Part shown: positions 1 through 64,000 of the stretch, piece by piece | Layout of the letters: the number at the start of each line of letters is the position of its first letter | Position numbering within the stretch: the first letter of the stretch is position 1 | Source: Eledone cirrhosa | Taxonomy: Eukaryota | NCBI GenBank assembly: GCA_964016885.1 | Contig: OZ024741.1 | Location: 221,588,001-221,652,000, forward strand | Direction: 5' to 3' | DNA: 64,000 nt | The notes under the pieces: model-generated | What the model saw: the letters and a program-made list of their open reading frames with translations, nothing else | What the model was told of the DNA's origin: nothing | Databases searched by the model: none | Translations under genes and position numbers: made by a program

Positions 1-34
1 TCCTCCTATTTTTATAGGCATCATTTCTACAGCT

Positions 35-3000
35 ATGGATGTGGCTCATTATAAGGTGGGCCACATAGGATGTGGCTCATTATAAGGTGGACCACATAGG
101 ATGTGACTCATTATAAGGTGGACCACATAGGATGTAGTTCATTATAAGGTGGACCACATAGGATGTAGTTCATTATAAGGTGGGCCACATAGGATGTGGC
201 TCATTATAAGGTGGGCCACATAGGATGTGGCTCATTATAAGGTGGACCACATAGGATGTGGCTCATTATAAGGTGGGTCACATAGGATGTGACTCATTAT
301 AAGGTGGACCACATAGGATGTGACTCATTATAAGGTGGGCCACATAGGATGTGGCACATTATAAGGTGGACCACATAGGATGTGACTCATTATAAGGTGG
401 GCCACATAGGATGTGGCTCATTATAAGGTGGACCACATAGGATGTGGCTCATTATAAGGTGGGCCACATAGGATGTGGTTCATTATAAGGTGGGCCACAT
501 AGGATGTGGCTCATTATAAGGTGGACCACATAGGATGTGGCTCATTATAAGGTGGGCCACATAGGATGTAGTTCATTATAAGGTGGGCCACATAGGATGT
601 GGTTCATTATAAGGTGGGCCACATAGGATGTGGCTCATTATAAGGTGGGCCACATAGGATGTAGTTCATTATAAGGTGGGCCACATAGGATGTAGTTCAT
701 TATAAGGTGGGCCACATAGGATGTGACTCATTATAAGGTGGGACACATAGGATGTGACTCATTATAAGGTGGGACACATAGGATGTGACTCATTATAAGG
801 TGGGACACATAGGATGTGGCTCATTATAAGGTGGACCACATAGGATGTGGATCATTATAAGGTGGGCCACATAGGATGTAGTTCATTATAAGGTGGTCCA
901 CATAGGATGTAGTTCATTATAAGGTGGGCCACATAGGATGTGACTCATTATAAGGCAGGTCACATAGGATGTGGCTCATTATAAGGTGGACCACATAGGA
1001 TGTGGATCATTAAAATGTGGGCCACATAGGATGTGGCTCATTATAAGGTGGGCCACATAGGATGTGGCTCATTATAAGGTGGGCCACATAGGATGTGGCT
1101 CATTATAAGGTGGGCCACATAGGATGTGGGTCATTATAAGGTGGGCCACATAGGATGTGGGTCATTATAAGGTGGACCACATAGGATGTGGCTCATTATA
1201 AGGTGGGCCACATAAGATATGACTCATTATAAGGTGGGCCACATAGGATGTGGCTCATTATAAGGTGGACCACATAGGATGTGGCTCATTATAAGGTGGG
1301 CCACATAGGATATGGCTCATTATAAGGTGGACCACATAGGATGTGGCTCATTATAAGGTGGACCACATAGGATGTGACTCATTATAAGGCAGGCCACATA
1401 GGATGTAGTTCATTATAAGGTGGGCCACATAAGATATGGCTCATTATAAGGTGGGCCACATAGGATGTGGTTCATTATAAGGTGGGCCACATAGGATGTG
1501 GTTCATTATAAGGTGGGCCACATAGGATGTGGTTCATTATAAGGTGGACCACATAGGATGTGGCTCATTATAAGGTGGGCCACATAGGATATGGCTCATT
1601 ATAAGGTGGACCACATAGGATGTGACTCATTATAAGGCAGGCCACATAGGATGTAGTTCATTATAAGGTGGGCCACATAGGATGTGGCTCATTATAAGGT
1701 GGGCCACATAGGATGTGACTCATTATAAGGCAGGCCACATAGGATGTAGTTCATTATAATGTGGGCCACATAGCATGTGACTCATTATAAGGTGGGCCAC
1801 ATAGGATGTGACTCATTATAAGGTGGGCCACATAAGATATGGCTCATTATAAGGTGGGCCACATAGGATGTGGCTCATTATAAGGTGGGCCACATAGGAT
1901 GTGGCTCATTATAAGGTGGACCACATAGGATATGGCTCATTATAAGGTGGGACACATAGGATGTGGCTCATTATAAGGTGGACCACATAGGATGTGGTTC
2001 ATTATAAGGTGGGCCACATAGGATGTGGCTCATTATAAGGTGGGCCACATAGGATGTGGCTCATTATAAGGTGGGCCACATAGGATGTGGCTCATTATAA
2101 GGTGGACCACATAGGATGTGGTTCATTATAAGGTGGGCCACATAGGATGTGGCTCATTATAAGGTGGGCCACATAAGATATGGTTCATTATAAGGTGGGA
2201 CACATAGGATGTGGCTCATTATAAGGTGGGCCACATAGGATGTGGCTCATTATAAGGTGGGCCACATAGGATGTGGCTCATTATAAGGTGGGCCACATAG
2301 GATGTGGTTCATTATAAGGTGGGCCACATAGGATGTGGTTCATTATAAGGTGGGCCACATAGTATGTGGCTCATTATAAGGTGGGCCACATAGGATGTAG
2401 TTCATTATAAGGTGGACCACATAGGATGTGGCTCATTATAAGGTGGGCCACATAGGATGTGGCTCATTATAAGGTGGACCACATAGGATGTGGCTCATTA
2501 TAAGGCGGACCACATAGGATGTGGCTCATTATAAGGTGGGCCACATAGGATGTGGCTCATTATAAGGTGGGCCACATAGGATATGGGTCATTATAAGGTG
2601 GGCCACATAGGATGTAGTTCATTATAAGGTGGGCCACATAGGATGTAGTTCATTATAAGGTGGGCCACATAGGATGTGACTCATTATAAGGTGGGCCACA
2701 TAGGATGTAGTTCATTATAAGGTGGGCCACATAGGATGTAGTTCATTATAAGGTGGGCCACATAGGATGTGGCTCATTATAAGGTGGGCCACATAGGATG
2801 TAGTTCATTATAAGGTGGGCCACATAGGATGTAGTTCATTATAAGGTGGGCCACATAGGATGTGACTCATTATAAGGTGGGCCACATAGGATGTGACTCA
2901 TTATAAGGTGGGCCACATAGGATGTAGTTCATTATAAGGTGGGCCACATAGGATGTGACTCATTATAAGGTGGGCCACATAGGATGTAGTTCATTATAAG

Positions 3001-3749
3001 GTGGGCCACATAGGATGTGACTCATTATAAGGTGGGCCACATAGGATGTGACTCATTATAAGGTGGGCCACATAGGATGTGGTTCATTATAAGGTGGGCC
3101 ACATAGGATGTGGTTCATTATAAGGTGGGCCACATAGGATGTGACTCATTATAAGGGTGGGCCACATAGGATGTGGTTCATTATAAGGTGGGCCACATAG
3201 GATGTGACTCAATTATAAGGTGGGCCACATAGGATGTGACTCATTATAAGGTGGGCCACATAGGATGTGGTTCATTATAAGGTGACCACATAGGACTGTG
3301 ACTCATTATAAGGTGGGCCACATAGGATGTGACTCATTATAAGGTGGGCCACATAGGATGTAGTTCATTATAGGTGGGACACATAGGATGTGGCTCATTA
3401 TAAGGTGGGCCACATAGGATGTGGCTCATTTATAGGTGGGCCACATAGGATGTAGTTCATTATAAGGTCGGGGCCACATAGGATGTGGCTCATTATAAGG
3501 TGGGCCACATAGGATGTGGCTCATTATAAGGCAGGGCCACATAAGATGTGGCTCATTATAAGGTGGGCCACATAGGATGTGGCTCATTATAAGGTGTGGG
3601 CCACATAGGATGTAGTTCATTATAAGGTGGGCCACATAGGATGTGGCTCATTATAAGTTGGGTCACATAGGATGTGGGTCATTATAAAGTGGGCCACATA
3701 GGATGTGGATCATTAAAATGTGGGCCACATAGGATGTGGCTCATTATAA

Positions 3750-12299: not shown

Positions 12300-12369
<70 letters not shown>

Positions 12370-12373
<4 letters not shown>

Positions 12374-12555
12374 AAAAAGTATGACCCCGACGGCCGAGCT
12401 CAAGCCATTTCGACGGCTATTTCCGTCGAAACGGCTTGAGCTCGGCCGTCGGGGTCATACTTTTTCCTATTACCTACTCTACTACCCTAAGTATTGAGTA
12501 CTCTGGTGCGTTATAGTCTATCTGGTTCCTTACCACAATTCCTTCGTTATATATA
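12370..12555 (+). mobile_element. Fold-back mini-element carrying a half hammerhead (copy 1)
   Basis: About 47-bp inverted arms at 12370-12469 plus an 85-bp tail shared with the copies at 14678 and 45590. Confidence 0.85.
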
Positions 12556-14677: not shown

Positions 14678-14680
<3 letters not shown>

Positions 14681-14870
14681 CGAAGGAAATGTGGTAAGGA
14701 ACCAGGTGGACCATAACGCACCAAAGTACTCAATACTTAGGGTAGTAGAGTGGGTAATAGGAACAAGTAAGACCCCGACGGCTGAGCTCAAGCTGTTTCG
14801 ACGGCTAATTCTGTACAGAATTAGCCGTCGAAAGGGCTTGAGCTCAGCCGTCGGGGTCTTACATGTTCCT
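14678..14870 (-). mobile_element. Fold-back mini-element carrying a half hammerhead (copy 2)
   Basis: Palindrome 14757-14870 plus shared tail, inside (TA)n. Confidence 0.85.
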
Positions 14871-14910
14871 ATATATATATATATATATATACCTTTCATT
14901 TATACCTTTC

Positions 14911-14957
<47 letters not shown>

Positions 14958-14958
<1 letters not shown>

Positions 14959-15843
14959 GAGGTGTGTCAGAAAAGTTCCAGGACTGATGTCACAAAAGAT
15001 TTATTTCAAACCAAAACTACTCACTAAGAGTTTTCTCCTTCAAAGTAATCCCCCTGGAGTATGTAACTGTTATCTTAGCTCTCTGCAGTGATCAAACTTT
15101 TTTCTTCATAATTTTATATACATGTCCTCTGTTTCAGTTCGTCAAGCAATGAGCACAGAGCAACGAACAAACTTGAAGTTTCTGGTACGGTTGGGGAAAA
15201 CTCCGTCAGAAGCACTGGGATTGCTGCAGCAAGTGTAATGAGATGAGACGATGTCACTCTCACGTGTTTTTGAGTGGTGCAAGATGACCCCAGGAGCGGA
15301 AGGCCCTAAACAACCAAGACTGAGGTCAACGTTGAGCGCGTCAGGCAGATGGTGCGTAGCGATCGTCGGCTGACTGTTCGACTGATGGCAAATGAGCTGG
15401 GCATGAATCGGGACAGCGTCTGGAAGATTCTCACTGAAGATTTGGACATGCGGAAAGTCTACGCGAAGATGGTGCCAAAACTGCTGAACGATGACCAGAA
15501 GGGTCGACGCATGCAAGTGTGCCAGGACATCCTCTAGCGTCTTGAAACCGAACCAGACTTGCTAGGGACAGTCATCACCGGTGATGAGTCATGGATCTTC
15601 GAGTACGCCCCGGAGGGGACCCGTTTTGAAGACGTGGACGACATCAATAAGGCCGTGACGACGGAACTGCGGAGGATCCCGGAAGAATCCTTCCAGGAGT
15701 GCATGCAAGCGTGGCAGAAAAGGATGGAAAAGTGCATTAGACTCCAGGGGTGTTACTTTGAAGGAGAAAACTCTTAGTATGAAGTTTGGGTTTGAAATAA
15801 ATTTTTTGTGACATCAGTCCTGGAAGTTTTCTGACACACTTCG
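14958..15843 (+). mobile_element. Internally deleted mariner transposon
   Basis: About 55-bp TIRs CGAGGTGTGTCAGAAAAGTTCCAGGACTGATGTCACAAAA, TA flanks; transposase remnants VPKLL, ITGDESW, WQKRMEKCI..G.YFE with stops and a deletion. Confidence 0.93.
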
Positions 15844-15864
15844 TATATATATATATATATATAT

Positions 15865-17353: not shown

Positions 17354-17532
17354 AAGAACATGAATATTATAAAATAAATATTTTATATATAAAAAAAATT
17401 TGGACTACGACAAATAATAAATAAAAATATATATATATTTAGAAAGGGGTATAAATGCCCATAGCACCTAGAGCACTCAACAAGTTCATGGAGCAAAAGA
17501 TCAATGAAAATAATCATCAAATCACTATATAT

Positions 17533-17720
17533 AATTGTTTCTACTTTAGGCACAAGGCCAGCAATTATTCCAGTGCATTACTGGTACTTTATTTTATCGA
17601 CCCCGTAAGGATGAAAGGCAAAGTCAACCTCGGCGGGATTTGAACTCAGATCGTAAAGGGATGTAACTATGCTGGAAAGCTTGGCGTCCGACCCTCTACC
17701 GATACTGCCAATCCACCGCC
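17533..17720 (-). mobile_element. SINE A with TSD CTATATATAAT
   Basis: Full-length copy with flanking duplication. Confidence 0.88.
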
Positions 17721-17869
17721 CTATATATAATGATACACATACATACACCCTTACACTTATAACATATACACACACACACATAAATATATATACATACACA
17801 CACACACAAAAAAACCCCAACCACAGAAATACAAACACACATACAAAAACGTATATATATATACACACA

Positions 17870-19010
17870 CATAGGGAAAAATCCTGACCCTACGGCAGAG
17901 CTCAAGCCTTTTCTGAGGCTATTATATAAAAACACACAAAACCATTATATAAAAAATTATTGTATAAAAAATTAATATCTAAAAATAAAAAAAAAATGTT
18001 GGTATATGAAGGGTAAGGCAAAAAAATAGGGGGGGGGGATATAGGAAAAGGTTAAATATAAGGGGAGATAAGGGAGAAAGAGAATACAAGAATATAGAAC
18101 GTGGATTCAGCAGGTAAAAAAACCGTAGTAGAAGTAAAGAGCAGAGAGGGAGTTCTAGGCGGTTGAGTTATCAGGAATGTCAATCCAGTTACAGATCAGA
18201 TGTAATTTCAGATGAGGACAACATCTGAAGATCTTAGTCTTTGAGTTCAGGCAAGCAGAAGTGGTCTCAAGTTTAGCAAAATCCTATTTTTTTCTGTGGT
18301 ACACAAAGAACAATTCTTTGTGCCCCTTTGGTACTCCCTCGAATGGTCTAAAATAGACCAATCGATAGAGTACGGGATGTTATTATCCTTGAATTCCCAC
18401 ACCTTACTTGCGAGGGCCGTTGTTGTTCGTTTATCGGAGTGCTTAAAAGAAGCGACATGTTAGTAAAACCTGGTTTTAAACCTGTCCTGGGTCATGCCGA
18501 CATATCGCTCACTCCTGGTTGGCTGGTTGTTGATTAAAGGTGTTATTTTAGCCTCATAAACAACAGATTTGGTGTTACATTTGCCCTGCAATGGGCATTC
18601 ATCCGGCTTCCTGCAACTGCATCCTGGATTTGTTCTCGTATGATTTGAATTAGTGATCTTGGACTTCATAGATGGGCAACAAGAGTAACTGATCTTAACT
18701 ACGTTCCTATTAAATATCTTATAATATCTATGATTAGGAGGAAAATGTTTATCTAAGAGTTCAAGGAATTTCCTTCCTACATTAGTTTTGACAGTTAGAG
18801 AGAAGGGGGGTGTGAACCAAATAATTTTCCTTTTCCTGTTATTGTGGTTAGTTTTAGAGGGGGGGAGTAGGTAAATAAAAAAAATTCTGTAAAACCGCTG
18901 TTCTTAAGGGCTTTATTATAATAAGGGGCGGCTTTATTAAAAATGTCTATAGACGAAGATAAGGTAGAAATCCTACGGCTAATGTTGTCCAAGATCACTA
19001 ATTCAAACAA
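17870..19010 (-). mobile_element. 5'-truncated, decayed Naiad-type PLE (thumb + GIY-YIG)
   Basis: CSCRKPDECPLQGKCNTKSVVYEA...YVGMT...RF; RRISTLSS..FNKAAPYY. Confidence 0.9.
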
Positions 19011-24309: not shown

Positions 24310-24820
24310 AGGGGGAAAATTAGAGAGGATAGGCATTACATTTTAAAGATTTTAAGTTAGAGAGAATCACATTATACCACACAATAACACTGCACAGCAC
24401 ACCACAATAACCTACACTACACCAAGCCACATTATACCACACCCCGGTAAATTTATAAAACACCAGAATTTCTGTCCTACGCCATCTTGTTTTTGTGTCA
24501 CAAAACAAGATGGCGTAGGACAGAACAAAGGAGAGGCACAAAAACAAAGAAAAGAATCCCCAGTCACTGAAGAGGTCACAGAATGTGTGACGAAAGAACT
24601 TTGACAATATATAAACAATCATCTGGTTGTTGAACCAACCAACTAACCAGAAATTTATAAATTCCTAAATTAATAAATTTATTATAATAAATTGAAGTGA
24701 AAGCAACTGGTGCGTGTGTTTCTTATTGGCAACATGACCCTCCCAAAGTATAACAATATCGGTTTCAACACACATTTTCAGATAAAGAATCTTGCTAAAC
24801 AAATTCAGAAACAAAATATA
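24310..24820 (+). mobile_element. Solo pLTR of the 53.4-56.1 kb family, with a hammerhead at 24563-24605
   Basis: Matches 53725-53975; GTCA-CTGAAGA-g-GTCACA-gaatg-TGTGAC-GAAA-GAAC-TT-TGAC. Confidence 0.85.
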
Positions 24821-28709: not shown

Positions 28710-30800
28710 ATAGTGGTGGAACACTGGAAGGTAATATCCGTAGTGCTAGAGCACTCAGTCCAAGGGACGAGTTAGGTAGAAGTGGTTACACAACAGTTAG
28801 TTCACCATACCGAGAACAATTATTTCACCTTCGCGGATCTTCAGCTCGGGATGTGTATGGTTATAGGAACAGGAAGGACAACCGTACGAACGAGCATGCG
28901 CAGAAACTCGGTCACTTCACACAGGCAATACTAGACTGCGTGCGGGAGGTGTAAGGGAGATAACTGCGAAATTCCGGAAAGTTTTTAGGTTGAAAATAAA
29001 ATTTAAAAAAATTAAAAATAAAATTACAAAGAATCAGTCCGGAGCCTTGTAGTTATGCAATACATGTTTGGTGACGTGTGGACAACGTGTGAAAAATTCA
29101 CTTCTCGTGTTTAGGCAATCACTATTGCATAATATCTTTAGGATAGTTATTCGTTCGTCAATAAATAAGCCACACGTCGGATTTCCCCTTGCGTATGGCT
29201 TGGACATAGTGATGGCTTTCCATTGAATGGAGTAGCCTATACTTGAGTCCTTGAGGGACCATACGTGGCTCGCGAGTCTTGTGGATGAACGTCTGTCCGG
29301 GTATCTGAAGGTAGACTGGTGGTTCAGGAAACGCTCCTTGAATCGGCCCTCCGCCATGCCCACATAGAATTTGACCTCCTGTGGTTGTGGTTCGTTTGGT
29401 CGGTTGGAAGTGATTCATAGATTACAGCTGGTGTGTTGCATTCCCGGACTTCCACACGGGAATATACCGTGACGATGGACTGACTCTATCGAGCCATAAA
29501 AGTGGTCACGACCTCGAGCGGTTTAAAAAAGACTTAGCTTCTACCTTCAATGAGTTAGGACTTAGGATAACAGTAGCCACAAACCTCTCTAGCGTAGATT
29601 TCTTAGACATTAATTTAGACCTTCGCACACACACCCACAAACCCTTCCATAAGCTAAACGAGAAACTTAATTACATTCACAAGGACTCATGTCACCCTCC
29701 CACTGTTTTTAGAAACTTCGTTAAGAATATCAGTACTAGAATCTCAAACCTCTCCTCTAATAAGGCTATCTTTGACAGGGCGGCACCCTTCTATAACACG
29801 GCGTCGGCTAACAGCGGCTTCTCACAACCTATTACCTACTCTCCCACTAGCAACAACACCATTAAGAAAAGTAAGCGCATCAATAGACAAACTATCTGGT
29901 TCTCTCCTCCCTTCTCACTCAACGTTAAAACCAATGTAGAAAAAAAATGTCTAGCCCTCTTAGATAGACACTTCCCCATAGGTCATAAATACCGCTCCAT
30001 CTTTAACCGACACAAAGTTAAACTAGGATACTCCTGCGCTAAGAACATGAAGGCCCACATCACCAGCAGCCCTAGGAGCAACACCCCACCAGGGTGCTCT
30101 TGCCGTAAGCCTGAAGCTTGCTCCCTTCAACAGCAATGCAACACATCAGCTGTAATCTATGAAGCTGTGGTCACTTCTAACCGACCAAACGAACCACAAC
30201 CACAGGAGGTCAAATCCTATGTGGGCATGGCGGAGGGCCGATTCAAGGAGCGTTTCCTGAACCACCAGTCTACCTTCAGATACCCGGACAGACGTTCTTC
30301 CACGAGACTCGCGGGCAACGTATGGTCCCTCAAGGACTCAAGTATAGGCTACTCCATTCAATGGAAAGCCATCACTAAGTCCAAGCCATACGCAAGGGGA
30401 AATCCGACGTGTGGCCTATGTATTGACGAACGAATAACTATCCTAAAGAGATTACGCAATAGTGATTGCCTAAACACGAGAAGTGAATTTTTCACACGTT
30501 GTCCACACGTCACCAAACATGTATTGCATAACTACAAGGCTCCGGACTGATTCTTTGTAATTTTATTTTTTATTTTTTTAAATTTTATTTTCAACCTAAA
30601 GACTTTCCGGACTTTCGCAGTTATCTCCCTTACACCTCCCGCACGCAGTCTAGTATTGCCTGTGTGAAGTGATCGAGTTTCTACGCATGCGCGTTCGTAC
30701 GGTTGTCCTTCCTGTTCCTATAACCATACACATCCCGAGCTGAAAATCCGCGAAGGTGAAACAATTGTTCTCGGTATGGTGAACTAACTGTTGTGTAATC
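28710..30800. mobile_element. Naiad-type PLE with an inverted 3'-end duplication (minus copy 28710-29440, plus copy 29445-30800)
   Basis: ORFs 29034-29363(-) and 30047-30550(+) are near identical; GIYRDDGL at about 29459; hammerheads at 28810-28849(-) and 30735-30774(+). Confidence 0.93.
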
Positions 30801-30802
30801 AA

Positions 30803-36719: not shown

Positions 36720-39241
36720 AGGGAAGACTTTTGTCATACGACTTCTCCTTGCCAAGATTCGACAACACAGACACATACCACTTGCTGTTGCGTCTTCCGG
36801 TATTGCAGCAACCTTGCTTCCCGGAGGCAGGACAGCACATTCAGCCTTCAAACTCCCCCGCAATATGACAGCAAATGACACACCCTGCTGTAATATTACC
36901 AAAGGATCAGAAAAGGCAGAACTGCTTAAAAGGTGTGAACTTATAGTTTGGGACGAATGTACCATGGCTCATAAAGGAGCTTTGGAGGCACTGGACCGGA
37001 CTTTAAGAGACAAAAGAGAATCCCAGGATCCCATGGGAGGCGTGACTGTCCTTTTATCCGGAGATTTTAGACAAATCCTCCCTGTTATTCCCAAAGGAAC
37101 AAGGGCTGATGCTATTCGAGCATGCTTAAAGTCATCTCCACTTTGGCGTTATGTCACAACATTAACGCTCTCTACGAATATGAGAGCTGGAATGCTTGGT
37201 GACCAAGTGTCATCAGATTTTGCTACCAACCTATTGACACTTGGGAACGGCAAAGTGCCACTTGATGAAGATGAAAAAATCTCTCTCGAACCTGTCTGCA
37301 CTTTAGTCGACAGTGCTGACGACTTGACAGATGCAGTATTCCCTGAGTTGAGGACTAACTACCAAAATCCAAACTGGCTGTGCGAAAGGGCAATACTGGC
37401 TCCAAAAAATGAGACTGTCGACAAAATCAACGGACAACTACTTAAGTCTCTTCCTACAGCTTCGTCTACATACAAGTCCATCGATACAGTCACAGACCCC
37501 ATTAACTACCCAATTGAGTTTCTTAACTCATTGAACCCCTCCGAGTTGCTGTCTCATCGATTGGAACTTAAGCAAGGATGCCCAATTATGCTTTTGAGGA
37601 ATCTACACCCACCAAAACTCTGCAACGGCACCCGCCTTACAGTAAATAAACTAACGCAAAACTTGATCGAGGCGACGATTCTCTCGGGGTGTGGAAAGGA
37701 AGAAAATGTTTTCATCCCAAGGATTCCCCTTTGTCCGTCAACATCAGAGATCCCCTTTTCATTTAGGAGGCTCCAGTTTCCAGTTCGTTGTAGTTTCGCT
37801 ATGACGATAAATAAGTCTCAGGGGCAAACATTGTCCGTCGCGGTAATAAACCTAGAAGAGCCATGATTTTCGCACAGTCAGCTATACGTTGGATGTTCCA
37901 GAGTGGGAAGCAAAAGAAACGTTTATGCATTTGCTCCAAACAGTAAAACCACAAACATTGTGTACCAAGAAGTCCTGTAATCAACACTGCGACACAAACC
38001 GTCTTCTAACAATCAAATACCTCGCTGCTTTCAATAATTACCAAATTGTAGACATACTGCCTTTTTGAAATTCATAACATCATACATTTTCGACTGTAAA
38101 CGTTGCGACCACTTTGAGCTGCACGGTATTGAAATCACGTTCCCCTCTGGTTGGTTGAGCCAGTTTTCCATGGATTCGCCAGCGCGTGCAGCAGACGTTG
38201 ATTCACATGTCTTTGCTGCCGCAGTTGACGCCGTGTTTCGGTTGATACAGCTCAAACAGCAGACGTTGACTCACAGTTCTTTGCTGCCGCAGTTGACGCT
38301 GTGTTTCGGTTGATGCAGCTCGAGCTGCGGAAGTTGACTCCCATTTCTTTGCTGCTGCAGTTGACGCTTTGTTTCGGTTGATGCAGCTCGAGCTGCGGAA
38401 GTTGCCTCAGCATGTCTATGCCGCCGTAATGAACGCTGTGATTCGTTCTCTGCATCTCCTACAATAGACCTTGCCTCAATATTTGCTTTCTGTCGCAGTG
38501 AGGGTTGAGAATCGTTTTCTGCACCTCAAGCAGCAGCGGTTGCCTCAGCATTTATTTGCTGTCGCATCGAATGTTGTTTCGTTTTCTGCATCTCGTGAAA
38601 TAGAAGTTGCTTCAGCATTTTTCTTTTGGCGTAATAATCGCTATTCGTTATTCTCTGTTACTTTTGCAATCGAGGTTGGTGCAGAATTTGTGTTGAGGAA
38701 TTTTGAGCGTCCTTCATGTTTGGTCTATGTCACTGCAATCAGTCTAAGGAAAGCAACGTCACAGTTTCTATTGGCAGCCACAACTATACAGAATGGTAAG
38801 CATTTCAAACTACATAAATCATTAGAATGCCTACATATACGCAATGCATAACGAAAAATTTACATGTTTCTACTGTAGCAAACGTATGTCACCCCCCTCA
38901 GTTGTACCTTTCACTCAAAGTCGTTATACATTATCTCCGTCATCCCGCAACGTCTTCAGTCCCTGAATTGCCAAACATCCCACATTATTGTCATAAATTC
39001 CATGTGACTCACTTTTGGCATAGTTGGCGTTTGGAGATTCACCGCATCAATGTCACACATTTACACTCATTCACCTTTCATATGCCATAACATTTTACCG
39101 TTTTTACATCGAACAACACATAATTCTTATGGTTAAAAATAAATGTTTTGGGAGGGGTTCGTGCTACGTTGTTTTCTATTTAAAAAAAGTATTTACTAAT
39201 GGTAGACTTATACCCGGGCAACGCCGGGTATGGCTGCAAGT
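35500..39241 (+). mobile_element. Deleted or composite Helitron
   Basis: 5' TATATAAAAATGAAAATGTCTGTCTG; 3' hairpin CCCGGGCAACGCCGGG followed by CAAGT (CTAG variant); internal Pif1 helicase. Confidence 0.75.
36721..37980 (+). pseudogene. Helitron Pif1-family helicase domain (Rep domain missing, one internal TGA at 37864)
   Basis: [72 protein letters not shown]. Confidence 0.93.
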
Positions 39242-39449: not shown

Positions 39450-39930
39450 GAATGTATATATAATGTATTTTGCAATACACTTTATGCTTAATTCAAAGCA
39501 TTTTGAAGACCGTATGCTATTGTTTTAGAGTAGTGACAAACTCACTTACTTTAATCTCAGCAAACAAGGGGAGATAAGCCGACAAGGCCTTGTTTCGCAT
39601 TTATTGATGCTTATCAAGGCTAACTACTCCCTCCTGTCTACTGAGATCACTGATGTTATATTCTTATAGAATTCTAGTAAATAATCAGGAACTGATTATA
39701 CAGAGCGGTTGCCGGTCAGGCAGAAATTAAAAATTAGAATTGGAGCTCTGAAATAGCAATATATATATGAATGTATATATAATGTATTTTGAAATACACT
39801 TTATGCTTAATTCAAAATGCTTTGAATTAAGCATAAAGTGTATTGCAAAATACATTATATATACATTCATATATATATTGCTATTTCAGAGCTCCAATTC
39901 TAATTTTTAATGCTTTGAATTAAGCATATA
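39450..39930 (-). mobile_element. pLTR-like module with a 90-bp-arm fold-back and a variant hammerhead (39576-39622)
   Basis: Palindrome 39727-39910; AGCC-TTGATAA-GCAT-caataa-ATGC-GAAAC-AAGGCCTT-GTC-GGCT. Confidence 0.7.
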
Positions 39931-43000: not shown

Positions 43001-44826
43001 TTAAAGAATAGATTAGCGAGTGGTGTTTTTATTGCTACAGAAACAGGGGTGGCGGGGGGGAAAACCATATAATTTAGTTGTTTTTTTTCCCGATTTATTC
43101 ACAGTACTGGTGTTTGAATTATAATTTTTAGAATTTCGTTTATACATGTCAGTCATATTATTATTTTTATCAGGATTATAATTCAAATTATTATTGTCTA
43201 TATATTCTATATTATTTTATCGACCCCGTAAGGATGAAAGGCAGAGTCAACCTCGGCGGGATTTGAACTCAGATCGTAAAGGGACGCAGCATAGTTACGT
43301 CCCTTTACGATCTGAGTTCAAATCCCGCCGAGGTTGACTTTGCCTTTCATCCTTACGGGGTCGATAAAATAAAGTACCAGTAATACACTGGGTAATTGCT
43401 GGCCTTGTGCCTAAAGTAGAAACAATTATTTTTATAACCTGTCTTTCTTAGTAATATCCTGCTTTCATTGTAATATCCTGCTTTTTCATCAAATATGGAT
43501 TTATTAGCAGATATTCTAGTTATGCGTTTCTGTACACTATTGACAATTGCATTTTTCACAGATTTAGGGTGATTAGAATAATAGCTAACGTAATTTAAGT
43601 TTTCATTGGGCTTATGGAAAGGGTAATTAAAAACCAGAGTTTAAGTTAAGGGTAACATCAAGGAAGTTAACTATTTTGGTACCACTTTCAACCTCTAATT
43701 TAAGGTCGTAATTTTTAAAGAAATCAATTATAGTTTTCTTAACTCTATTTAGTTCGGTATTGCTGTGTTTGACAACCGTAAATAAAATATCGTCCCTATA
43801 TAAATCACCGGTAATCTCCGGCAGTTTTCTATTTACCATATTTAAGATGAAAATCCCCAGAAGGTCCGTGACCTGCGCTGAGTCCGATGATCCCATGGTA
43901 ATGTCAAAGTTTCTATTCCTATCTGAGCGGGTCCAATACTCATTGTTGAAATTAATTAGAGTTCTTCTAGCAGTTAATATGATATCGATTTCATCCGTAG
44001 TTAGATCTGTATGCTTGTAAGCGTAGGATAAAGCCTTATTTAATAGGTTAGGTGTAATGGAAGAGTAATAGCTTGTTATGTCCATTTGGATGTAATTGTG
44101 GTTTTTCTTATCATCTATATTTTTAAACCAATCAATCACTTCATTGGTGTCCTTCCATAAACTCAATTTAGACCTCAATTTCATAATAGGTAAAATTCTA
44201 TCAATAATATTCTTACTGATTACCCCAATGTCCGATTTAGATGGAGCAATCAGTCTAACTGGCAGGTCTTCCTCAAAGTTTCTTTTGTGATCCTTATGAT
44301 TATATGTATATCGTTTCACTAATACCTATAATACTCTCTATATATATTTGAACAATTCTGTTTATCTAGTATAATAACATGCTCCTAGTTATATTTATAA
44401 GTAATTTGGATACTTAAATGACTCTCTATTGTTATAATTGTTTGATATTTTCTTAATGTTCTAAATTATATAACGATTATTACTTAATTTAATTTAATTT
44501 ATTTTAATTAAATTCGGGTTACCTTCGGGTCATTGAAATCCTTAGCTCCTCTTTCTATCATCTTCGTGGACACTTTAGAAGTGTTATTAGTCTACTATAA
44601 AAATTAAAAAAAAACTCTCTTGCATTTTTAAACTATATTTTTTTATATTGTCATATATTACTCACTACCATGACTAAATCTTAACCATCTACTATATCAA
44701 GGTATGTCATGCATCATCTTATTTTATCTGATGAGGACGTACTGTTGAAGTTAACTCAGTACCTCTGAAATATGTATAATAAAATATACTTGATCGCAAG
44801 AATATCTATTTTGTTAATATTTTGAA

Positions 44827-45242: not shown

Positions 45243-45343
45243 CACTAGAAGAGGTAAATATTTAAATCGTATTTTAATTTATTTAAAAGATTGTTTAATG
45301 TTTACTTGTTCCGCTCATATATATATATATATATATATCTTTA

Positions 45344-45425
45344 TCATCCTTACGGGGTCGATAAAATAAAGTACCAGTAATGCATTGGGTATTTGCTGGC
45401 CTTGTGCCAAAAGTAGAAACAATTA
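45344..45425 (+). mobile_element. 5'-truncated SINE A
   Basis: 3' half only. Confidence 0.8.
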
Positions 45426-45434
45426 TATATATAC

Positions 45435-45917
<483 letters not shown>

Positions 45918-46514: not shown

Positions 46515-46701
46515 TAGAAGAGTTGATAGAATTAAGACTAATAAAGAATGCTAATATCTATTTTGACAATCAAACGGGGATAGAGACAGGCGTTCAATCC
46601 TGGTAGTATTTATAAGGATTGAACGCCTGTCTCTATCCCCGTTTGATTGTCAAAATAGATATGAACATTCTTTATTAGTCTTAATTCTATCAACTCTTCT
46701 A
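46515..46701. repeat. Near-perfect palindrome, about 86-bp arms, 15-nt spacer
   Basis: ...GGCGTTCAATCC-tggtagtatttataa-GGATTGAACGCC... Confidence 0.92.
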
Positions 46702-47067: not shown

Positions 47068-47109
47068 GAGAGTAAAACAAAGAAGCCTTCAATACATCAA
47101 AAGAATTTA

Positions 47110-47153
47110 TTAGCCGACAATGTTTCGTCCTATTAAGGACTCATCAGGGCAAT
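47110..47153 (-). ncRNA. Canonical minimal hammerhead in the downstream pLTR
   Basis: GCC-CTGATGA-GTCCT-taat-AGGAC-GAAAC-ATT-GTC-GGC. Confidence 0.92.
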
Positions 47154-48939: not shown

Positions 48940-51627
48940 CTAATGGGTACAATTTGTACTACTAGAACGTTTAGGTTTATAATAAAAGTATGAATTAGAA
49001 ATAGCATGGGGGCAAGAAGAGAATATCTCAGACTTTCTATTAAGTAAGGATGCGCTAGAGAAAATTATAGAGTGTGTCTCGAGGATACAGAGATTACAAA
49101 ACTTAGTATGTGTAGAAAGGTGGTTAGAGCGTGCTACTAAACGCCAGTTAAGGCTATATGGTATATTAGCTATCTTAAGATCCCAGACATAATGTGCTAA
49201 AGAAGTAGAATTCTTAAACTTAACATGCTTGAAATTAGAGATATGAGAGTTAAACCTAGTCTTAAAAGTGTTAGATGTAGAGCCTATATAAGTTCTATTA
49301 GAGGAATTAGTTATAACTTCGCAAGCATAGACAATGTTCTTAGAAAGGCAGTTACCGTTTAAAGGGCAGTTAGCACTCACTCTACAATTGCACTTCCGGG
49401 TGTTATTGGTTGACTCAAGTGGTGATGCATTACAGGTAGGATTGCTATTAGATAAGGACTGTTCTGGTGGTAATGCATTGCCAGATCTGTTCGGACTAGT
49501 AGTATGTAGAGAGGAGAATCCATCCCTAATTTTCCTATTGTTAGTGCTAGCTAAATGAGAACTAATATTAGGGGTGGTAGAGAATGAAAGTTTAATAACA
49601 TTTTTATTAAAAATACCATGGTATTTATGAGAAGGGGGGAAATTTTTCTCTAAGATAGAGAAGAAAGACCTAGGGATATTAGTTGATACTTCCTGATTAT
49701 ATGGCGGGTTAAAATAAGTATTTAATCGCCTTCTATTTTTATTCTTACCGACTCTACTATTATCAAATATCCCACCATCGAGACTAGGGTTACTACAAGG
49801 ATTAGTTAAAGCCGCATTCATAGAATCAGCCAAAATTTCATTAAGTCTATTACAGTTTCTACCTCCAGTAGATCCGCTGCTGTCCGGAATCCCATCATAA
49901 GGATCAGGGCCAATGATAGGATCAGTAGGAGCAACATTTTCAGAATAAGATCCAGCTAAATTATCACCAATGTGTGAGCGCTCAGGGGGTTCAACTTGTT
50001 TCCTAGAGGTATTATATTCACTATTGCAGGTTCGGTGGGTTAGCTTATGGGTGGGTTCGGATACACCTATATAATTTTTACGGTTACTATGTTTGCTACT
50101 CACATTCATGGCCATGTTATGTGATATTATGTTATTATTATTAAAAGTAGACGGAGACTTTCTAAGGTTACTATTAGTATAGTGTATTTTACTAGAGTAA
50201 CCTGAATTTGCTAGGGCATTATTATAGTACTCCGCATGTTCATTAAATGTTCCTACGTCCTTAGAGAGTGTGGAAATCCTATTAGATACACCCTTAATTA
50301 TAGAGCTTATCATAGACTTGGGGTGGTTAGAATTGGGACTAACATAAGAAAGTATTTCATTAGGCTTATGGAAGGGTTTAAAACTATTAGTGACCAAGTC
50401 CAAAGTCACACCCAAAAAGTTAACCGCTCTATCATTTCTATCTATCGTGATCGAAAGGTTATAGCTTTTAAAAAACTTATAAAGCTTCTTCTTATTATGT
50501 TCTACATTGTTGGTGCTAGAGTTAATTACAAACAATGCATCATCACGATATAGTCCGCCTGTAAGGTGCGGGAAGGTAGCATATAGTTCATTAAGGAGGA
50601 ACAACCCAACAAGATCAGTAACCTGGGCCGAATCACTCGAACCCATTGTAACGTCGAAATTGTTAGGCGTGTTTTTACGGGTCCAAAATGTGTCCTCAAA
50701 TTTAATAATAGTTTTACGGGCTGCTAGTATAATATCTACCTGTGATCGTGTAAGGCTGGACACTCTCATGGCCAACATTAAAGCTTTATTGAGGAGGATG
50801 GGTGAAATTGATGTGTAGTAGGCATCAATATCGTATTGGATAAACTTATTAGATTCAAGTCTATTAATCCCGGAGAACCAATCTATAACTTCCTTAGTGT
50901 TCCCCCATAGGTTAAAATTAACCTTATCCCTAACATCTGATATAATAAGGTCAAGGATTTTTTTACTGATAATGGCTATATCAGACTTAGAAGGACAGAT
51001 GAGTCTAACAGAGGGGTTACTAATAAAATCAACCTTATTATCCTTAAGAGTGAATCTCGGTTCTCGAGGGTAATATGGCTGGGTATACTTATCGAGGCCG
51101 AGGTCAGAGACAATTCTAAGGCCATCACTATTGATGTGGTTCAAATTCTCAAGTGTAGTTTTTTTATAGTTTCTATGCAGCTCCTTATAAATAAAGTCGC
51201 GGTAAGCACTATAATCCATGGAGTATAGATTTTTAGTCTTATCCGCCGGGACAAGAATGGACTTATTCTCACCGAAACCCTTAACAATATTTTTAAGTCT
51301 AGACTGGAACTTATCAAAATTATTATAATTTCTATGTCTATTATTTGGCCTATACCTAATATTTTTGACAAGAGAGAGTAAGTCACTTTCAAAACTATCT
51401 AACAGAATATTGTGTGGTGGGCTCTTATAAGTTTTGAAGCCATAGTTATTAAAAATAGTTCTATTCCTGGGGTCCTTCCTATTCTTATTATTATCATAGT
51501 GGAAAGCACGCCATCTAATCCTTTTTACAAAGGATTTAACACTAGCTATCAATAGTTTTTCGTAAGTATTCTTAGAGGGGGTGGGAATATTCTTCAGAGA
51601 TAAAGGCAGGTAACTCTTTGTTAGCAT
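48940..51627 (-). CDS. PLE reverse transcriptase + GIY-YIG endonuclease, 895 aa
   Basis: LKNIP, RIRWRA, ADKT, YDIDAYY, MGSSDSAQ, GLYRDD, CNCR....CPL...C, IVY..YIGST..RF..H, CNLC..E, LNRKSE....CPH. Confidence 0.95.
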   Translation of the reverse strand: MLTKSYLPLSLKNIPTPSKNTYEKLLIASVKSFVKRIRWRAFHYDNNKNRKDPRNRTIFNNYGFKTYKSPPHNILLDSFESDLLSLVKNIRYRPNNRHRNYNNFDKFQSRLKNIVKGFGENKSILVPADKTKNLYSMDYSAYRDFIYKELHRNYKKTTLENLNHINSDGLRIVSDLGLDKYTQPYYPREPRFTLKDNKVDFISNPSVRLICPSKSDIAIISKKILDLIISDVRDKVNFNLWGNTKEVIDWFSGINRLESNKFIQYDIDAYYTSISPILLNKALMLAMRVSSLTRSQVDIILAARKTIIKFEDTFWTRKNTPNNFDVTMGSSDSAQVTDLVGLFLLNELYATFPHLTGGLYRDDALFVINSSTNNVEHNKKKLYKFFKSYNLSITIDRNDRAVNFLGVTLDLVTNSFKPFHKPNEILSYVSPNSNHPKSMISSIIKGVSNRISTLSKDVGTFNEHAEYYNNALANSGYSSKIHYTNSNLRKSPSTFNNNNIISHNMAMNVSSKHSNRKNYIGVSEPTHKLTHRTCNSEYNTSRKQVEPPERSHIGDNLAGSYSENVAPTDPIIGPDPYDGIPDSSGSTGGRNCNRLNEILADSMNAALTNPCSNPSLDGGIFDNSRVGKNKNRRRLNTYFNPPYNQEVSTNIPRSFFSILEKNFPPSHKYHGIFNKNVIKLSFSTTPNISSHLASTNNRKIRDGFSSLHTTSPNRSGNALPPEQSLSNSNPTCNASPLESTNNTRKCNCRVSANCPLNGNCLSKNIVYACEVITNSSNRTYIGSTSNTFKTRFNSHISNFKHVKFKNSTSLAHYVWDLKIANIPYSLNWRLVARSNHLSTHTKFCNLCILETHSIIFSSASLLNRKSEIFSSCPHAISNSYFYYKPKRSSSTNCTH

Positions 51628-51851
51628 ACTGTCAGATATATATATATATAAAGGCCAAAATACCAGTATATATGAGGAAGCTCAACCGATCGGGAGCAGT
51701 GACAAGGGTTAAAATACTGAAGTGTGTTGGAGTTAAACACCCTCTTCGTATTATAGAAATGACAGTAAAAGGTATAGCTCAATGTAGTTAAACAGAGCCG
51801 AAAAATTAAGAGAGTAAAACAAAGAAGCCTTCAATACATCAAAAGTCTTTA

Positions 51852-51896
51852 TTAGCCGACAATGTTTCGTCCTATTAAGGACTCATCAGGGCAATT
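51852..51896 (-). ncRNA. Canonical minimal hammerhead in the upstream pLTR
   Basis: Identical to 47110-47153. Confidence 0.92.
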
Positions 51897-62935: not shown

Positions 62936-63144
62936 TTTGTTTAAGCGTCAGTCATACAAAAGTGAGTTAGAAGCGAAACGAAATTTAATTTCGTTTCGTT
63001 ATTTGTTTTTATCGTTTCCGCTGAACCGGTGCGTACAATGACTCACGTTCTATGCAAATTAGTCTACCCACTACTAATTTTCATAGAAAAAGCATATAAC
63101 GATATGTGCTTTTACAATTCTCCAGAGAAGCCGGAAGATGGGTA

Positions 63145-63189
63145 AATATTGCTGATGAGATGTAATAACATCGAAACTAGTCCAATATT
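63145..63189 (+). ncRNA. Canonical minimal hammerhead within an extended stem I (63117-63211)
   Basis: AATATTG-CTGATGA-GATGT-aata-ACATC-GAAAC-TA-GTC-CAATATT; outer ATTCTCCAGAG/CTCTGGAGAAT. Confidence 0.92.
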
Positions 63190-64000
63190 CCTGTCTGGCC
63201 CTCTGGAGAATAGAGGAAATGTGTTTCCTTGAAAACCCGTATGACTCTAAAACCCGGTCCGTCTGTGTGGTTACATACAGACTAGCTGACACTCACTGTA
63301 AAGTGTCTAGTGAAAAGCTGAGTACATGTACATATGTATACATGTGTGTATTTATATGCATACTAATACTTCCGTATACATATGTAGATGTACACTTTAA
63401 CTTAATTGTTTATATATATATATATATATATTTAAAAGAATAGAGGTGTAACACACAAGTTATGATATATTGGTAAACGGAAAAGAAAATGCTGACAAAT
63501 TGTTCACAGTGAAAAATAGTTTAATTAGGAATAAGTGAGAATTAGTAATAGTATTGGTTAGTATTCAGTTTTGGTTTTAAGTTTTACCGGTTGCGCATTT
63601 CTAATGCTTTTCAAAAATAATTTTGAGATAGAGCGTCCGTGATGTTTGCTCTAATCTGATTAGTTTTGGAAATTCTACCAGTTTTTATGTTAAAAAAGTG
63701 GCTCCAGCTGTATTAAAATAAGTTTTGCGCCAATTCGTGTTGCAAAAATTCTTGTGGTCAAAACAATTTGGATTGGTCGGTAGAGGTCATGTGAATGTTA
63801 AAAATTGATTTTGCGCCAAATGTAGGTTTGTGTCGGCTGATTGAGAAGTCACTGAAAAATAAGTCTTTCAAAACAAATATGTGTGTGTGTGTGTAGTAGT
63901 AGTAAAGAGGTTCGTTGTTGTGATAATGGTCAGCAGGGATGTGTGTGCGAACCGCAGCCTGTTGACAGTTCAAATGCCTATTAAGACAAGTGTAGAGGGA

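Follow-up and report, generated by a model that had tools for sequence, protein, structure and literature searches.

Three short repeats in the genome of Eledone cirrhosa raise the question of how half of a ribozyme comes to lie twice, head to head, beside a tail that occurs on one side only. The repeats lie in a 64,000-nucleotide stretch of contig OZ024741.1 (assembly GCA_964016885.1, positions 221,588,001 to 221,652,000, forward strand), hereafter the window, within which positions are given. Our answer, to which we assign a probability of about 75%, is that they are insertions of a Hydra-clade Penelope-like element (PLE), in which two complementary DNAs (cDNAs), primed at the two ends of the tail, likely ran off the 5' end of the RNA, mostly at its predicted capped start and sometimes at a predicted ribozyme cut, and were joined head to head.

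All three elements are flanked on both sides by (TA)n tracts, and their lengths of 180, 194 and 193 bp (12370–12549, 14678–14871 and 45590–45782) agree with the figure of about 190 bp in a first-pass annotation of the window. They share 84–96% pairwise identity, and each consists of a 100–116-bp palindrome (12369–12470, 14757–14872 and 45669–45783, with arms of 48, 58 and 55 bp) and a one-sided tail, which is present as the annotation described but is 80 nt long, not 85 nt. The annotation was also right that each arm is the GAAA, stem III, GUC and stem I half of a hammerhead without its core strand, and that the centres vary between copies, those quoted for elements 1–3 matching the sequence. 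Rfam returned no hammerhead at any of the three. We number positions from the initiator-like A (+1) of the parent described below; the outer insertion ends are then +60 and +140, and the core strand, at -43, lies outside the arms of the three elements, which end at +2 to +15. Divided in this way, the elements comprise the following parts.

12370 to 12423, reverse strand: short arm of element 1, parent +7 to +60, its CCTA end adjoining (TA)n
12424 to 12549, forward strand: tail-bearing arm of element 1, +15 (or +14 with a 1-nt overlap) to +140
12470 to 12549, forward strand: 80-nt tail of element 1, +61 to +140, parental 5' untranslated region (UTR) between the two fixed insertion ends
14678 to 14816, reverse strand: tail-bearing arm of element 2, +140 to +2
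14817 to 14871, forward strand: short arm of element 2, +6 to +60, or starting at +2 if a self-complementary overlap of 4 nt is included
45590 to 45728, reverse strand: tail-bearing arm of element 3, +140 to +2
45729 to 45782, forward strand: short arm of element 3, +7 to +60, with a blunt junction

An intact parent was found at locus L061, where an 830-bp inverted arm ending in the tail accompanies a partial tandem copy and a full 3.0-kb unit. The unit has an open 786-aa frame and ends in CCTA, followed by TATA, before (TA)n; the 80-nt tail is part of its 5' UTR. Its translation contains RWR, DKT and YRDD motifs, a CxCx5C linker and a C-terminal YIG-like region. Homologues of this open reading frame (ORF) numbered 2,054 among 8,000 scored, and a Pfam scan of it matched no family. 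The locus has both the layout of an endonuclease-positive (EN+) PLE, namely a single ORF with reverse transcriptase (RT) and C-terminal GIY-YIG domains between pseudo-long terminal repeats (pLTRs), and, by self-alignment, the EN+ insertion pattern of an inverted 5'-truncated copy, a partial tandem and a one-sided tail. Judged by its motifs against the published description of the group (DKT, RWK-like, CxCx5C, (TA)n, short length; PMC8557442), the parent is a Hydra-clade PLE. As in that clade, compared by description (Craig et al. 2021, PMC8557442), there is a single ORF, a length of ~3 kb, DKT, a CxCx5C linker, a C-terminal GIY-YIG-like domain and insertion at (TA)n; unlike the clade as described, this family (family A) has RWR for RWK and a U3-A8 hammerhead core that is not canonical.

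A parent had been anticipated by the first-pass annotation, but with a core of CUGAnGA, and the corresponding canonical-core pattern had 0 genome matches. The parental order is stem I, UUGAnAA, G10.1, stem II, a ~35-nt loop, GAAA, stem III with a palindromic loop, GUC and stem I, and the pattern for this U3-A8 variant had 5,839 genome matches. Cores counted by eye among the first 100 of these listed were U3-A8 in 75, C3-A8 in 23 and U3-G8 in 2, and all four bases occurred at core position 7. The minimum free energy fold is a three-way junction with an open core (z -0.57), and Rfam found no hammerhead match in three parent loci (L128, L131 and L284) at E 0.5. As read and modelled from its sequence, the parental hammerhead is complete and of type I, has a U3-A8 core, and is predicted to cleave itself. 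The variant has been reported in Schistosoma Cercyon (Cervera and De la Pena 2014, PMC4209133). Like the PLE hammerheads presented in that paper, the motif is of type I, lies in the pLTR, shows U3-A8 covariation and a palindromic loop III, and occurs in pairs on opposite strands; unlike them, stem III is stable (5–6 bp) and the ~35-nt loop II holds the predicted start site, so that in family A the promoter splits the ribozyme.

Matches to these elements are abundant across the 3.0-Gb genome. We counted 21,538 exact matches to a 25-mer of the arm, 25,503 exact-pattern matches to the tail ends, 26,433 CCTA ends at which TATA follows, and 16,236 palindromes whose centre spans 4–34 nt, with 0 matches for the reversed control of each; the 25-mer count shows that the arm palindrome is not due to chance. 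Since the patterns differ in stringency, these counts are lower bounds and not strict ratios. Of the first 100 tail matches on contig C1, which we used for mapping ends, 98 were insertions and 2 ran on into the ORF; an inverted arm adjoined 67 of the 98 tail-ended insertions. The insertions, examined for target-site duplication, were flanked by (TA)n on both sides. Junctions were highly varied, with 49 types among 73 palindromes and the commonest type on 4 different concordant haplotypes, and those of 45 palindromes comprised 13 blunt joints, 19 with microhomology and 13 with filler. Insertion sizes were continuous from stubs up to multi-kb inverted and tandem units. The palindromes are one-off stub insertions of an autonomous Hydra-clade PLE, not a self-copying family.

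The arms of family A end preferentially at one site. We set +1 at the A of T[T/C]AGT[C/A], a motif kept across subfamilies whose loop II otherwise diverges. Relative to it, family A has a CArG-like box (-62), the core (-43), a TATA-like box (-29), the 3' strand of stem II (+11), the predicted ribozyme cut (following +41) and two outer ends (+60 and +140), where CArG-like, TATA-like and initiator-like are what we take these motifs to be. The box at -62, CC(A/T)6GG (L061:4287–4296 and other parents), is conserved across family A subfamilies in two spellings. Among the 98 tail-bearing arms, 50 end at -5 to +8 and 43 at scattered positions from +9 to +116; the interval from -6 to -92 contains no ends, and the remaining 5 lie upstream of it. 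Two tail-bearing arms (L170 and L179), which have internal deletions and could be placed at +5 and -3, were conservatively left scored as short. Short arms start at -5 to +8 in 52 of 67 cases, and in 30 loci chosen by their CCTA end 16 start at -3 to +8. The centre of symmetry is not simply the stem II loop, where the first-pass annotation had put it, but lies in the 3' part of the ~35-nt loop II, at the predicted start of transcription. At four loci (L185, L230, L392 and L416) the arms end near -3 to +1 and are followed by 14–25 A residues, which suggests reiterative synthesis, or RT slippage, on a U run at the template end. From the DNA ends and the TATA and initiator consensus, we infer that +1 is a capped RNA polymerase II (Pol II) start.

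An additional base at these ends is consistent with a cap. In LINE-1, cDNA that reaches the capped end of its RNA gains a G. The parents have T or C at -1, and yet G directly before +1 had 6,094 genome matches, compared with 992 for A. The partner arm did not account for the base at -1 in 18 of 30 G loci (a count of 19 by script, with L363 then reclassified by eye) and 23 of 30 A loci, which extrapolates to ~3,700 unexplained G against ~760 A, about 5:1. In unselected palindromes with filler, the first filler base was G in 4/4 arms ending at +1 versus 5/22 elsewhere. Four pairs picked from the matches listed (L478–L481) carry an extra G on both arms, and at L360, L376 and L382 the short arm has an extra G of its own where the tail-bearing arm stops at +2 or +3. 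A non-parental G before +1 is what a copied mRNA cap would be expected to leave, and an extra G from mRNA capping is known for insertions made by LINE-1 (PMC11702581).

A second family separates the turn from stem II. Family B, found in a 778-kb scan (for example L010:660–785, L018:1338–1457 and L281–L310), has the tail-plus-palindrome design of family A with a complete canonical hammerhead in both arms; its tail had 16,543 matches and its parents encode Hydra-type ORFs. In 5,291 copies, TATAAATA is kept, followed by a variable spacer and then YCAG directly before stem I. With +1 set at the A of YCAG, TATA lies at -29 to -33 in 38 parents. Of 46 tail-bearing arms scored, 28 end at -1 to +9, 8 beyond -70, 2 at -6 and -19, and 8 at +11 to +23, and the short arms start at +1 to +9 in 23 of the 28. 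The turn site of family B is thus an A 29–33 nt after TATAAATA, upstream of a complete ribozyme. Because the turn follows TATA by about 30 nt in both families and falls at stem II in only one, stem II appears incidental to it. The mRNA predicted for family B would begin 6 nt upstream of the core and could remove its own cap.

The predicted ribozyme cut is the site of a smaller class of family A ends. Over the first 117 Mb, a pattern designed for short products matched 39 loci. In 19 of them (two being a tandem duplicate) an arm terminates precisely at +42, and CpG decay leaves 4 others ambiguous. Of the 23 short loci with two arms, 13 have +42 as the start of the other arm, and 10 show this position in both arms. 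Only about 1 such double locus would be expected if the arms were independent, a rough estimate from mapping rates of 4/98 and 2/67, so the two arms appear to share one RNA end. Solo arms end at the cut in 5 of 19 cases against 1 in 30 expected (p = 3e-4, with end calls that blur +41 and +42 and references that include point mutants). Filler after +42 ends is mostly A, not the cap-like G. We infer that the +42 ends come from self-cleaved RNA. Ends at family B's own ribozyme cut occurred in only 2 of 70 loci, both explicable by stem I microhomology, and we do not count them as support.

These patterns could be accounted for by a simple scheme. Both nicked strands of a (TA)n target would prime cDNA, one at each end of the tail. 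On an mRNA from the family A pLTR promoter the two start sites would lie only 60 and 140 nt from the cap, and both cDNAs would run off the 5' end; their 3' ends would then be joined head to head, and fill-in would yield a palindrome with a tail. Longer insertions would need read-through RNA, and read-through RNA cut by the ribozyme would give the +42 class. The half-ribozyme appearance would arise because family A promoter mRNA begins after the core strand and carries only the substrate half.

The main rival is the one proposed by the first-pass annotation, in which a single cDNA begun at the tail stops at or within stem II, then folds back and copies itself into the short arm. Self-priming has been proposed for PLE junction palindromes (PMC3846280), and the preferred end site coincides in part with the 3' strand of a weak apical hairpin predicted for extended stem II. 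The two arms also share subfamily alleles in 72, 68 and 70 of 73 copies at three sites, as fold-back predicts, but this concordance would also fit one RNA copied twice, or two RNAs from one source. Discordant arms do not serve as proof of two templates either, as the 5 discordant copies (at one site) all belong to 30 loci chosen for likeness to element 3, and ascertainment explains them. What weighs against fold-back is that a self-copied short arm could not hold sequence missing from the tail-bearing arm. Among 67 copies the short arm extends further upstream than its partner 33 times, equally far 11 times and less far 23 times, and it is longer by at least 10 nt in 19 (17 without two ambiguous calls); in element 1, too, the short arm reaches further, holding 7 nt missing from its partner. 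In addition, a priming hairpin could not be accommodated at junctions with no loop or a 1-nt spacer, the short arms at the three loci named above have their own extra G, and family B turns outside any stem II. We therefore regard stalling and fold-back at stem II as largely refuted, and improbable as an account of the stubs. Slightly less doubtful, and still unlikely, is that priming was indeed two-ended and +1 is a processed or structure-imposed end, such as a nuclease cut in the loop, a 3' splice site or a protein roadblock. The 13-nt spread of ends would suit such an origin, and the AG dinucleotides at +1/+2 and +6/+7 resemble splice acceptors; however, no spliced upstream exon was seen at junctions, in two families whose ribozymes are laid out differently the end falls 29–33 nt downstream of a TATA box, and +1 ends gain a G where +42 ends mostly gain an A.

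We consider it very improbable that the stubs are copied as a unit from palindromic masters, in the manner of a miniature inverted-repeat transposable element (MITE) or short interspersed element. Such a family would be expected to have very many copies, fixed outer ends and some recurrent junctions, as seen here, and self-propagation had been suggested in the first-pass annotation, but the variety of junctions, with the commonest on 4 haplotypes, speaks against it, as do the continuum up to multi-kb inverted and tandem insertions, the lack of a TATA-like box in stubs and the asymmetry of ends that are not terminal inverted repeats. A MITE with terminal inverted repeats in particular is ruled out by the one-sided tail and by 49 centres in 73 copies. 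Palindromes are a known class of assembly or library artefact, arising from fold-back chimeric reads, but we give this origin almost no weight given the fixed asymmetric ends, the point differences between arms, and the nested and dispersed copies. A head-to-head joint at +11 also occurs in contig X5 (depth 1.9), from a run coded as another organism. None of the sequencing runs listed as matching is of RNA, and the best-matching run may represent the assembled sample.

Several observations count against two run-off cDNAs as the origin of the stubs, or limit its reach. The ends spread over 13 nt, which needs trimming or several starts, and many lopsided junctions have 2–6 nt of microhomology and could be later deletions within palindromes. 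Allele sharing between arms, as noted, is also a prediction of fold-back. GAGT occurs twice in the tail and is the source of some of the G excess (2/30 loci); 24 of 70 family B loci lack the anchor and are unscored; and the 23 C3-A8 cores among the first 100 listed are mismatches. RT could stall at the base of stem III, which is 1 nt away from the +42 end, and no reads ending at the ribozyme cut are described for the anole element in the main account of it (PMC11167929). The sampled loci come from the first 26–117 Mb of one contig, and both the start at +1 and the cut at +42 are deduced from DNA ends and what we take to be the TATA and initiator consensus.

Much of this architecture has precedent. 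The first-pass annotation knew of no earlier description, but an inverted, 5'-truncated copy head to head with a direct copy, with a tail and palindromic junctions, is standard for EN+ PLEs (Arkhipova et al. 2013, PMC3846280; Craig et al. 2021, PMC8557442). The insertions studied here resemble typical units in those accounts in their head-to-head copies, partial tandems, tail on one end, palindromic junctions and (TA)n targets. They differ in that the tail is 80 nt rather than the 30–40 nt reported, and in that most are ~190-bp stubs with both arms ending at one 13-nt site; the data also point to two cDNAs made on a sense template rather than to the antisense-template self-priming put forward in PMC3846280. 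In vitro, PAc Poseidon nicks and extends both strands of its target and begins reverse transcription at each end of the tail, mainly on uncleaved RNA (Frangieh et al. 2024, PMC11167929). The elements here would be similar in having two internal RT start sites that bound the tail; unlike that system, for which we found no treatment of how the head-to-head junction forms and no reads at the cut, their genomic ends mark a predicted capped start and a predicted cut. A pLTR promoter has been described for Drosophila Penelope (PMC2377424).

Other retroelements offer partial parallels. In LINE-1 twin priming, two primers on opposite target strands produce an inversion; such inversions duplicate no sequence, whereas both arms here copy one 60-nt stretch. 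Minus-strand strong-stop DNA of long terminal repeat (LTR) elements is a short run-off product made when RT starts near the RNA 5' end; it is transferred onward, whereas the run-off products proposed here would be integrated. The stubs share with non-LTR retrozymes (PMC7229834; bioRxiv 2026.07.22.740005) a short, non-coding, PLE-related and hammerhead-derived nature, but those are described as head-to-tail tandems with complete ribozymes, and the dispersed, head-to-head arrangement without a core rules out that identity. A term search of the text of a recent octopus repeat annotation gave no mention of such palindromes (PMC13282606). By title and abstract, we found no report of PLE arms ending at a transcription start, of a cap G in PLEs or of genomic ends at a hammerhead cut, with most subscription literature and the supplements of PMC8557442 and PMC11167929 outside the search. 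The insertion architecture is thus known, and the cap and cleavage signatures were not found in print.

The window contains further PLE sequences and palindromes. The first-pass annotation had noted a related half motif closing a nearby PLE, and this was found, together with part of its ORF.

17872 to 17923, reverse strand: 3' terminus of a PLE that is related but more decayed and not the parent, carrying a comparable half-hammerhead (GUA triplet) and a CCTA end
18460 to 18903, reverse strand: linker/GIY-YIG ORF fragment of this related PLE, 35% identical to the parent over 139 aa

The PLE end is 80% identical to the stubs over 50 nt (E 1.4e-6); because the protein fragment is only 35% identical to the parent, this PLE is a distant relative. 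A full-length PLE with a 913-aa open frame (ORF 48940–51681, reverse strand) lies between two pLTRs (47109–47153 and 51851–51895, reverse strand), each with a canonical type I hammerhead that scores 31.7 bits in Rfam, just below the cut-off of 34. A PLE fragment of another family at 28783–30801 has 631-nt inverted arms (97%) around 757 nt, a longer head-to-head structure. The palindrome at 43212–43372, with 75-bp arms, belongs to another abundant (TA)n-associated repeat, also present at 17530–17722 and 45338–45425, and has a one-sided extension as in PLE stubs. Further palindromes occur at 46515–46701 (87-bp arms), 39726–39911 (91-bp arms) and 24470–24525 (24-bp arms), and ~40 others in the examined loci, many adjoining (TA)n, suggest more families of this kind. 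A weak Rfam match to Hammerhead_HH9 with a canonical core lies at 63134–63204, forward strand (31.8 bits, E 5e-4). The window also holds a decayed mariner-like element with inverted ends (14957–15845), a PIF1-type helicase fragment that is presumably Helitron-like (36721–37866), and a 31-bp tandem array of ~100 units (1–3300).

The assembly of the inverted-plus-tail unit of PLEs, the use of a sense or antisense template, and hammerhead cutting in vivo are posed as open questions in work on these elements (PMC3846280, PMC8557442, PMC4209133 and PMC11167929). The junctions described here offer countable, base-level predictions for them, namely that the RNA starts with a cap at +1, that it is cut at +42 and that two cDNAs are primed, and end-mapping of this kind is applicable to any PLE-rich genome without RNA data. 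For annotators, abundant palindromic stubs of this kind are neither MITEs nor microRNA hairpins. More broadly, and with somewhat less assurance than we attach to the origin of the stubs, we lean towards the view that these tens of thousands of copies form a built-in map of the 5' ends of PLE RNAs. The head-to-head unit would then consist of two separate cDNAs of one sense, capped Pol II RNA species, each integrated as a run-off similar to strong-stop DNA. The hammerhead would cut in the germ line, with the cut RNA still retrotransposed, and in one lineage a promoter inside loop II would give an mRNA that carries half a ribozyme and is unable to decap itself.
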